Position numbers and translations under genes: made by a program
The notes under the pieces: generated by a model
What the model was told of the DNA's origin: nothing
What the model saw: only the letters and a program-made list of their open reading frames with translations
Databases searched by the model: none
Source of the DNA: Escherichia virus TH38
Direction: 5' to 3' (one strand)
Sequence record: MT446410.1
Length of the DNA: 64,000 bases
Shown: positions 30,039-60,456 of the stretch, in pieces
Layout: each line of letters begins with the position of its first letter
Position numbering within the stretch: the first letter of the stretch is position 1

Positions 30039-30047
30039 TATACATTA
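30039..30047 (-). promoter_or_regulatory. TAATGTATA promoter motif (- strand)
   Basis: Exact motif on - strand upstream of SSB operon. Confidence 0.35.
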
Positions 30048-58019: not shown

Positions 58020-58331
58020 CTATTTAAGTTTGAGGCTAATGTTAAGGTGCATACATGCCCTGTTCTGTACAGCAGCATAACTTCTACCGAGCATGTCTGC
58101 CATTCTCTGAATAGGCATGAACCCAGCATTACGGATAAGGAACTGGTCTTCTTCTTCAGACCACTTAACTCGGATTGAAGCTCTTGATATTCCGAATTTA
58201 GTGCAAGCTGTGTTAACAGCATTCTCCGTTACATTCATAATCTGAGCAACTTCTTGAACCGAGTACTCTTTGATTAGTCTCCGAAGATTTTCAATCTGCA
58301 TCGGAGTCCATATAGTTCTTCGAGCTTTCAT
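58020..58331 (-). CDS. HTH DNA-binding protein (putative transcriptional regulator)
   Basis: Two HTH-like segments (YSVQEVAQIMNVTENAV; MADMLGRSYAAVQNR). Confidence 0.45.
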   Translation of the reverse strand: MKARRTIWTPMQIENLRRLIKEYSVQEVAQIMNVTENAVNTACTKFGISRASIRVKWSEEEDQFLIRNAGFMPIQRMADMLGRSYAAVQNRACMHLNISLKLK

Positions 58332-58621
58332 ACATCCTCCAATTAAATATTTATGTAAGACTTGCTTAGATAAAGATTCAATAAAATAGGGGGAGGGGAC
58401 GAATCCTCCCTTATCCTATTAGTTAATATTGCATGTAAGATCTAACAATCGGTTGCCTTTGTAGGAATAAGCGTAAAGCCAATCCAGCACTAAACTCCCG
58501 CCCCCTTAGTGGGCTGGGTTATTAAAGGGTAACGCCCTTATGGGCTAGTTACATGAATGTTAGTTTGATAGGAGATCTGAAGTCCTATCTCAAAGGACTC
58601 TCGTAAGAATCCTTCACGATA

Positions 58622-58879
58622 TTACTTAAAGATAAAATGCATAACTGCGTCATATGCTTTAAACAGAAGCCAACCTATTGGATAAAAAACTCCTGCCAGT
58701 ATTGAGATAGGCCACAACACAATTAAGAGCACAACCATCATCTCATCAGGTTCAGAGCTGGTAGACCCTGTTGTAATGACCCCTTTTAGTAGACCTTTCT
58801 TGTATAGCAGTTTCAGCACTAAAACAGAAAGGAATACTCCAATAAAGTAAACTGAGATAAAAATATCAAGTAAACCCAT
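58622..58879 (-). CDS. small membrane protein (2 TM)
   Basis: Hydrophobic segments FISVYFIGVFLSVLVLKLL and VVLLIVLWPISILAGVF. Confidence 0.45.
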   Translation of the reverse strand: MGLLDIFISVYFIGVFLSVLVLKLLYKKGLLKGVITTGSTSSEPDEMMVVLLIVLWPISILAGVFYPIGWLLFKAYDAVMHFIFK

Positions 58880-60381: not shown

Positions 60382-60456
60382 TGGCGTTCCCTCGTGGAAT
60401 CGAACCACGAATAAGAGCTTAGAAGGCTCCAGTTATATCCGTTTAACTAAGGGAAC
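60382..60456 (-). tRNA. tRNA-Arg (anticodon UCU)
   Basis: Hand-folded cloverleaf: acceptor GTTCCCT/AGGGAAC, D-stem GTTA/TAAC, anticodon stem GGAGC/GCTCT with loop CTTCTAA, T-arm CGTGG-TTCGATT-CCACG, encoded CCA. Confidence 0.7.

Follow-up and report, generated by a model that had tools for sequence, protein, structure and literature searches.

The window analyzed here is the whole 64,000-nucleotide stretch of Escherichia virus TH38 (MT446410.1), a phiEco32-like phage (Kuravirus, Gordonclarkvirinae). At positions 58332-58621, a 290-bp gap separates two genes on the minus strand, and the other neighboring genes lie on that strand as well; the gap is 100% identical to that of Escherichia virus TH06 and 97.6% identical to that of phiEco32. 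Downstream, at 58020-58331 (minus), is the gene for a 103-aa helix-turn-helix (HTH) protein that matches Pfam Sigma70_r4_2 (E = 3.7e-7; 30.1 bits against a cut-off of 25.7 bits) and whose relatives are annotated as “transcriptional regulator, D5-like.” Upstream, at 58622-58879 (minus), is the gene for an 85-aa hydrophobic protein for which no Pfam match was found, and its stop codon (TAA, 58624-58622) abuts the element described below. The list of open reading frames (ORFs) holds no minus-strand ORF of at least 25 aa within the gap, and the plus strand has a single 39-aa ORF (58270-58389) that touches only the gap edge. The window's single tRNA gene, for tRNA-Arg (anticodon TCT; 60382-60456, minus), is found 1.8 kb upstream from the element and points in the same early direction. 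The block around the gap corresponds to the early region of the literature, in which sigma-70 promoters are located far upstream (SU10 paper).

A sequence-only reading of this DNA had described the gap as poor in ORFs, with a GGGAGG...CCTCCC inverted repeat, and had suggested that it could hold early promoters or operators for the adjacent regulator or, instead, a small RNA. The description was borne out: the repeat occupies 58410-58391 on the minus strand (GGGAGGattcgtccCCTCCC then CCTATTTTAT) and is flagged as terminator-like by a scan, and RNAfold predicts further G+C-rich hairpins at 58497-58518, 58529-58552, 58567-58589, and 58592-58615. Evidence from the single sequence is weak, only marginally above chance, with two terminator-like sites found against 1.4 expected in 2 kb and a folding z-score of about -2.7 to -2.9 on the minus and plus strands alike. 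The region exceeds chance because of what comparison reveals, namely, extreme conservation and compensatory base changes.

Querying with the 290 bp matched 132 phage records, with identity of at least 95% in 75 and coverage of at least 80% in 99 of the 132. A query with the surrounding 3 kb reached at least 80% coverage in 7 of 108 records, at identities of mostly 80 to 95%, as is seen with a mosaic flank. The same block is found between differing flanking genes in phiEco32, SU10, PAS59, 4E8, NJ01, ECBP2, SU7, and IME267, and the position of the upstream gene (here 58622-58879) is taken by unrelated genes in other phages. In gene-strand alignments the edges are sharp. Conservation starts with TATCGTG right after the stop codon of the upstream gene, whichever gene that is, and stops a few bases past a 3′ hairpin; the next 53 bp, up to the HTH start, vary with the downstream gene. 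These conservation edges define a non-coding element of ~237 nt (58385-58621, minus strand, read from 58621 to 58385), the 5′ edge of which abuts the stop codon and the 3′ edge of which is the foot of the terminal hairpin.

The element is also carried by an unrelated family, the N4-like coliphages of the genus Gamaleyavirus (Schitoviridae), including G7C, PhAPEC5, PhAPEC7, ECBP1, pSb-1, phi G17, and others. There, the copies lie in a long gene-free, tRNA-rich stretch between the homologues of N4 gp47 and gp48, on the same strand as the genes and tRNAs and usually just upstream of tRNA or tRNA-like genes. A BLAST search with a Gamaleyavirus copy returned 155 phage records, all from Gordonclarkvirinae or Gamaleyavirus, and scans of viral and metagenome contigs yielded further variants. 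The element was absent from 5,426 complete E. coli genomes, the plasmids searched gave no match, and 185,579 bacterial and archaeal species genomes gave none except one mis-binned Kuravirus contig; a host origin was rejected on these grounds. That contig (CALKAR010000070.1; 8 kb; our locus L057) is filed under an “uncultured Peptococcaceae” metagenome-assembled genome (MAG) and is a Kuravirus fragment with the element and HTH gene arranged as in the window, so placed most likely by a binning error. In a 2,088-nt metagenome contig (OERT01002574.1; L038), the 5′ two thirds of the element are of the Gamaleyavirus type and the 3′ end and flank are of the Kuravirus type; this reflects either natural recombination inside the element or chimerism of the assembly.

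Other small non-coding features accompany the element. A second shared module, absent from the window, comes after it in PhAPEC7-type Gamaleyaviruses and in certain phages of Kuravirus and Suseptimavirus. This module consists of an ~85-nt long-stem tRNA-like hairpin (CUAUCGGAGAGUG...ACUCCCCGAUAG) located at about 484-596 of L012 (SU10), at about 1385-1495 of L003 (PhAPEC7), and in NC-B and IME267. Since this module is common to both families, non-coding cargo seems to move between them in modules. NJ01-type phages (L015, L021, and L035) have an extra small hairpin just 5′ of the element, with compensatory changes among phages (CACCuauaaagGGUG, CACGCUcaaAGCGUG, CAUGAUcaaAUCGUG). The tRNA-like genes downstream of the Gamaleyavirus element (L004, L017, L036, L060, and L062) have unusual anticodons (Ala-CGC, Ile-AAT, and Cys-ACA, with one undetermined), and in several Gamaleyavirus records, that of G7C included, no tRNA-like gene was called in the same ~1.2-kb gene-free region.

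We rejected a protein-coding gene or small ORF as the explanation for the conservation. Besides the lack of a minus-strand ORF of at least 25 aa in the gap, no frame is conserved: among the 40 copies compared, the longest run of codons without a stop (median, 34) falls in differing frames and on differing strands. Length differences among copies are not multiples of three. GenBank records nonetheless draw a “hypothetical protein” across the element (KF562340 PhAPEC7_53p1, PV933157 Gp51, and several Kuravirus records are among the affected entries), and in one Klebsiella phage entry a “tail spike protein” pseudogene covers it; reading-frame conservation supports none of these calls.

For structural comparison, the 40 distinct copies were read 5′ to 3′ on the gene strand. 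RNAalifold run on the raw alignment recovered part of the structure. Because the MAFFT alignment mis-registers the first hairpin (H1), a variable core, and variant 3′ hairpins, we counted pairs on anchored segments and applied the pair-counting tool to well-aligned helices only. H1 (58592-58615, minus), identified from RNAfold and from pair changes, is a 10-bp hairpin (GAAGGAUUCU/AGAGUCCUUU) with a UACG tetraloop, and it can be extended by pairing of UAUC (58621-58618) with GAUA (58589-58586). Among Kuraviruses, one H1 pair occurs as U.G, C-G (PAS59 and L042), and U-A (L043), and in the basal helix, G.U/A-U and U.G/C-G alternations separate clades. Gamaleyaviruses have a shorter hairpin with a variable loop in the same place. 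H2 (58567-58589, minus) has a 7-bp stem, GAUAGGA/UCCUAUC, capped by a 9-nt loop that hardly varies, CUUCAGAUC (58582-58574). The Gamaleyavirus stem is GAUAAGG/CCUUAUC, so that two pairs are altered on both sides between clades: one is G-C in 18 sequences and A-U in 22, and the other is A-U in 18 and G-C in 20. The helix is 99.3% paired across copies. The 5′ domain can adopt two exclusive folds, as the UAUC-GAUA pairing excludes H2; their predicted energies are -15.9 versus -15.8 kcal/mol in Gamaleyavirus and are 2.7 kcal/mol apart in the window phage. In phage ZQ2, one pair of the H1 extension has gone from U-A to C-G through a double change that at the same time leaves H2 with a G.U pair.

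Beyond the 5′ domain, CUAAC (58559-58563) and GUUAG (58442-58446), both on the minus strand, are invariant in 40/40 copies and always complementary. They are predicted by RNAfold in several clades to form a long-range helix, P3, which shows no covariation and which would close the variable core (58447-58558, minus). P3 would surround two or three hairpins whose positions are kept and whose sequences are replaced; in the window these are H3 (58529-58552), H4 (58497-58518), and H5 (58464-58485). At least six different stem versions occur at the position of H5. At H4, a GCCC/GGGC core is retained with several loop versions, except in the G7C clade, which has lost the hairpin. The H3 of Kuravirus is replaced by GCUCA..UGAGC in other clades, and Suseptimavirus and Gamaleyavirus have an alternative to H3 in a long-range helix, AUGYUG/CARCAU, in which U.G, U-A, and C-G are seen and C.A never is. 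A nearly invariant linker, RUCUUACAUGYAA (58429-58441, minus), follows P3. Its first four bases (58441-58438) are complementary to AGAU in the H2 loop (58578-58575), with standard pairs in 40/40 copies and one position that is U.G in 26, U-A in 13, and C-G in 1 (PhAPEC5); a pseudoknot between the H2 loop and the linker is therefore possible.

The element ends in a two-tier 3′ hairpin (58385-58420, minus) composed of a lower stem, AAUAGG/CCUAUU, a 4-nt bulge, and an upper stem, GGGAGG/CCUCCC, with the loop AUUCGUCC; UUAUU follows the hairpin. The upper stem (GGGAGGauucguccCCUCCC, 58410-58391) has 6 pairs, 5 of them G-C, and is preserved by compensatory changes in other phages: 24-32N has GGAGGG/CCCUCC, which amounts to two double changes, and other variants are AGAGGG/CCCUCC and GGGAG/CUCCC. 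These were described by inspection, the automatic registration being unreliable owing to C runs. The lower stem (AUAGG/CCUAU) is invariant.

In the well-aligned helices, standard pairs fill 99.7% of cells, compared with 23 to 46% when partners are slid by one to three columns, and the covariation score was reached by 0 of 500 shuffles, a control that ignores the relatedness of the phages. Structure-preserving compensatory or wobble-mediated changes occur in H2, H1, the H1 extension, and the 3′ hairpin. They go back to a small number of independent events, chiefly the separation of the two families plus a handful of single-phage changes; P3, the lower 3′ stem, and most of the pseudoknot never vary, so these pairings are predicted rather than proven. 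In H1, H2, and the pseudoknot, 87 G.U pairs were counted versus 7 A.C mismatches. Because the opposite strand turns every G.U into an A.C mismatch, the selected structure is the one on the gene strand. The element therefore qualifies as a structured non-coding RNA in the generic sense, having helices maintained by compensatory substitutions, with few independent events among them. Of the earlier suggestions, the small RNA is supported by the comparison of copies, in which an RNA fold of the gene strand is conserved, and we are fairly confident that the element is a functional RNA structure under selection.

It matched no known RNA family. Rfam 15 gave no gathering-level match in the element; the best sub-threshold scores were 13.7 to 16.6 bits against thresholds of 50 to 93, and a permissive search (E up to 10) returned only noise (MESTIT1, CssrA, and rydB), so known RNA families were set aside. 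Rfam likewise found nothing inside the element in four Gamaleyavirus loci, and ARAGORN and Rfam found no tRNA or tmRNA in it, here or in the Gamaleyavirus loci. A CsrA-type sponge was rejected, GGA motifs being neither enriched nor conserved by eye, and a CRISPR-repeat or ToxI-like decoy was set aside, there being no tandem repeats and no evident likeness to such sequences. Hfq-dependent base-pairing small RNAs have a terminator with a long 3′ U tail and a conserved single-stranded seed complementary to target mRNAs; in the element, the U tail is short and partly paired, and a conserved linker is present. No complement of at least 12 nt to the element was found within the window, and targets inside the phage were rejected, since only 11-mers occur, in about the number expected by chance. 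The literature that we searched on phiEco32-like or G7C-like phages, a search with the two primary phiEco32 papers outside it, holds nothing on this region.

Some described RNAs resemble the element in part. CpxQ, SroC, and DapZ are enterobacterial small RNAs cut from 3′ untranslated regions or from inside operons. Like RNAs of this type, the element starts right behind a stop codon, lacks its own conserved promoter, ends in a hairpin, and would be released from a longer transcript; unlike them, it is far larger and more structured (~237 nt, at least 6 helices), has a weak U tail and no seed-target pairing that we could find, and is phage borne and common to phage families. The tRNA cluster of phage T4 contains the stable RNAs C and D (species 1 and 2), which are phage-encoded non-tRNA RNAs beside tRNA genes. 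The Gamaleyavirus element is likewise just upstream of tRNA or tRNA-like genes, but it has no sequence similarity to the T4 RNAs, BLAST matches being confined to Gordonclarkvirinae and Gamaleyavirus, and the window's only tRNA gene is 1.8 kb away. Conserved intergenic phage RNAs with covariation and of unknown function are also reported in a catalogue of candidate viral structured RNAs drawn from IMG/VR, many of them tRNA-like or terminator containing (Fremin et al. 2023, PMC10690425). Going by the description of that catalogue, its candidates are 29 to 151 nt long, compared with ~237 nt for the element, parts of which may already be in it, unnamed. As a class, the element fits a phage-encoded structured non-coding RNA; none of the sequence and model tests matched it to a described family.

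The element could instead act in cis. As in Rho-independent terminators, its G+C-rich hairpin precedes T-rich sequence on the gene strand, and the terminator scan is passed in Kuravirus (the window phage) and Suseptimavirus (ECBP2), where the U-rich tract required by the scan is present (in the window, CCTATTTTAT). It differs from such terminators in that four non-U bases stand between the upper stem and the U run, itself short and in part taken up by lower-stem pairing, and in that the G7C copy lacks the tract and fails the scan. In G7C, a strong 13-bp terminator ~800 nt downstream of the hairpin closes the non-coding cluster, and in ShWW44, pSb-1, and ECBP1, a tRNA-like gene begins a few bases past the hairpin. 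Given the scan failure in G7C, the distant terminator, and the adjoining tRNA-like genes, the conserved role of the hairpin appears to be structural, in forming or protecting a 3′ end; in the window phage it may be, at most, a leaky terminator. A terminator alone does not explain the 200 nt of conserved structure upstream. Elsewhere in the early region are stronger terminator-like hairpins at 61895-61872 (minus), with a 10-bp stem and a UUCG loop followed by GTTGTTTT, and at 56388-56371 (minus), with a 7-bp stem followed by CTTTTTT.

An explanation that takes in the upstream structure is a cis-acting attenuator or leaky terminator, in which the folded domain and 3′ hairpin would set how much early transcription continues into the genes beyond, in this phage the HTH regulator; the switch would be the two-state 5′ domain or a bound factor, riboswitch-like or protein dependent. 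We consider this, the main rival, unlikely. It agrees with the terminator-like hairpin at the 3′ end in Kuravirus and Suseptimavirus, with the conserved multi-helix domain that precedes it, with the two nearly isoenergetic 5′ conformers of Gamaleyavirus and the one compensatory change that fits both, and with the position of the element within a long operon in which no promoter is found nearby. Invariant junctions, variable peripheral stems, and alternative folds are also shared with riboswitches and leader attenuators. However, the downstream genes vary among phages and are tRNA-like genes in Gamaleyavirus, the hairpin of G7C has no U tract, different RNA polymerases are presumed to transcribe the region in the two families, inspection by eye revealed no conserved antiterminator that would pair with the hairpin's 5′ arm, and there is no Rfam riboswitch match.

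To a second alternative, a DNA-level element, we give only a small chance. The element would then be a junction for homologous recombination between gene modules or a replication or packaging signal. Flanking genes are indeed exchanged exactly at its edges, contig L038 joins a Gamaleyavirus-type 5′ part to a Kuravirus-type 3′ part, and adjacent hairpin modules travel between phages as well. However, recombination leaves unexplained both the structure-preserving double substitutions and the tolerance of G.U but not A.C, and the status as a junction may result from conservation rather than cause it. The replication and packaging machineries of Kuravirus-type and N4-like phages are, moreover, unrelated.

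The remaining alternative is the other half of the sequence-only reading, a promoter or operator for the adjacent HTH regulator, with the hairpins and TCTTACAT motifs serving as protein-binding DNA sites. A scan for hexamers 16 to 18 bp apart found no sigma-70-like site on the gene strand in 58332-58621. Only the variable junction to the HTH gene (58332-58384, minus; 53 bp that differ with the downstream gene, with the ribosome binding site [RBS] GGAGGA at 58340-58335) could hold a promoter or operator for that gene, and a weak one at best; its best candidate, TTGAAT-N17-TTACAT (58381-58353), agrees at 7/12 positions, below the scan threshold. The promoter recognized by the phage sigma factor of phiEco32, gp36, is a single element, tAATGTAtA (PMC8948821). 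We found no motif of this type (TAATGTATA) within 8 kb of the gap, and of the 19 matches in the window with at most one mismatch, 0 lie between 49983 and 63701. The five exact copies of TAATGTATA, at 2598, 20142, and 30111 (plus) and at 30039 and 36539 (minus), are as expected for middle and late promoters, and two of them are divergent, ~70 bp apart, near 30.0 to 30.1 kb. A phage-sigma promoter within the element was rejected, as its ATGTAA-containing motifs deviate from tAATGTAtA at key positions and the pattern search gave no match nearby. On the plus strand, a sigma-70-like site inside the HTH gene (58213-58241, TTAACA-17-CATAAT, 10/12) is directed into the element and, if active, would produce an RNA antisense to it.

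The linker motif recurs in part as GUCUUACAUAAAUAUUU (58361-58345; compare AUCUUACAUGCAAUAUU at 58425-58441) directly upstream of the RBS of the HTH gene; this partial copy is present only in phages with this junction and occurs in a number at chance level. A repeated regulatory motif was rejected, as two occurrences of TCTTACAT..AATATT equal the chance expectation and a repeat finder returned only short chance families. The promoter or operator is very improbable: the HTH gene does lie directly downstream of the gap, the two TCTTACAT..AATATT copies are 80 bp apart with one beside the RBS of that gene, and the linker variant TTACATGTAA of some Gamaleyaviruses is a perfect palindrome, but the gene strand has no promoter-like site or phage-sigma motif, the single-base variants TTACACGTAA and TTACGTGTAA each destroy the palindrome, and the excess of G.U over A.C favors RNA over duplex DNA. 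The block recurs beside different genes and has no adjoining regulator in phiEco32, ECBP2, SU7, or any Gamaleyavirus; because it is present without the HTH gene adjoining and in phages lacking that gene, it is not an operator for the HTH protein.

A functional phage RNA is probable, rather than a promoter or operator, because two unrelated families share the element almost unchanged. We lean, somewhat, toward a horizontally exchanged structured RNA module that would be co-transcribed with early genes, accumulate as a stable small RNA, and act on the host in trans. Lacking its own conserved promoter, the element would be transcribed as part of the long early operon or, in Gamaleyavirus, as part of the non-coding tRNA cluster, there presumably by a different polymerase. 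N4-like phages are presumed to use a different RNA polymerase for this region than phiEco32-like phages do. Stable 5′ and 3′ hairpins could shield the RNA from nucleases, and a discrete small RNA could accumulate after partial termination at the 3′ hairpin, nuclease trimming, or both. No conserved promoter was found preceding the element, and for this reason it may never exist as a separate RNA.

The released RNA would act on something common to E. coli infections, and a protein or RNA partner would most likely make contact at the invariant H2 loop and linker. The invariance of this loop and linker, the restriction to phages of E. coli and close relatives, and the movement between families point to a host-directed function in trans. 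In a bolder version, the element would be the founding member of a new class of small RNAs that is exchanged among virulent coliphages of unrelated families because it acts on an E. coli-specific factor, with the H2 loop and linker binding and the two-state 5′ domain switching. We regard this as possible but doubtful. For such a target, one possibility is a role as decoy or inhibitor against a host defense or RNA metabolism protein.

Lytic phages carry tRNAs and a few stable RNAs, and we know of very few structured non-coding RNAs with a known role in virulent coliphages. The element is nearly universal in phiEco32-like and G7C-like phages, groups that are used in therapy and in the BASEL collection, and annotation pipelines have overlooked it or labeled it “hypothetical protein.” Its crossing between phage families argues for a portable, host-directed function. 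If it is only a leaky terminator or stabilizer, the element marks an early-operon boundary that the temporal maps now available for phiEco32-like phages do not include. An expressed element would deserve an Rfam family and, as one that can feasibly be deleted, would be a compact and testable entry point into RNA-based host takeover or anti-defense, with its natural variants as ready-made compensatory mutants.
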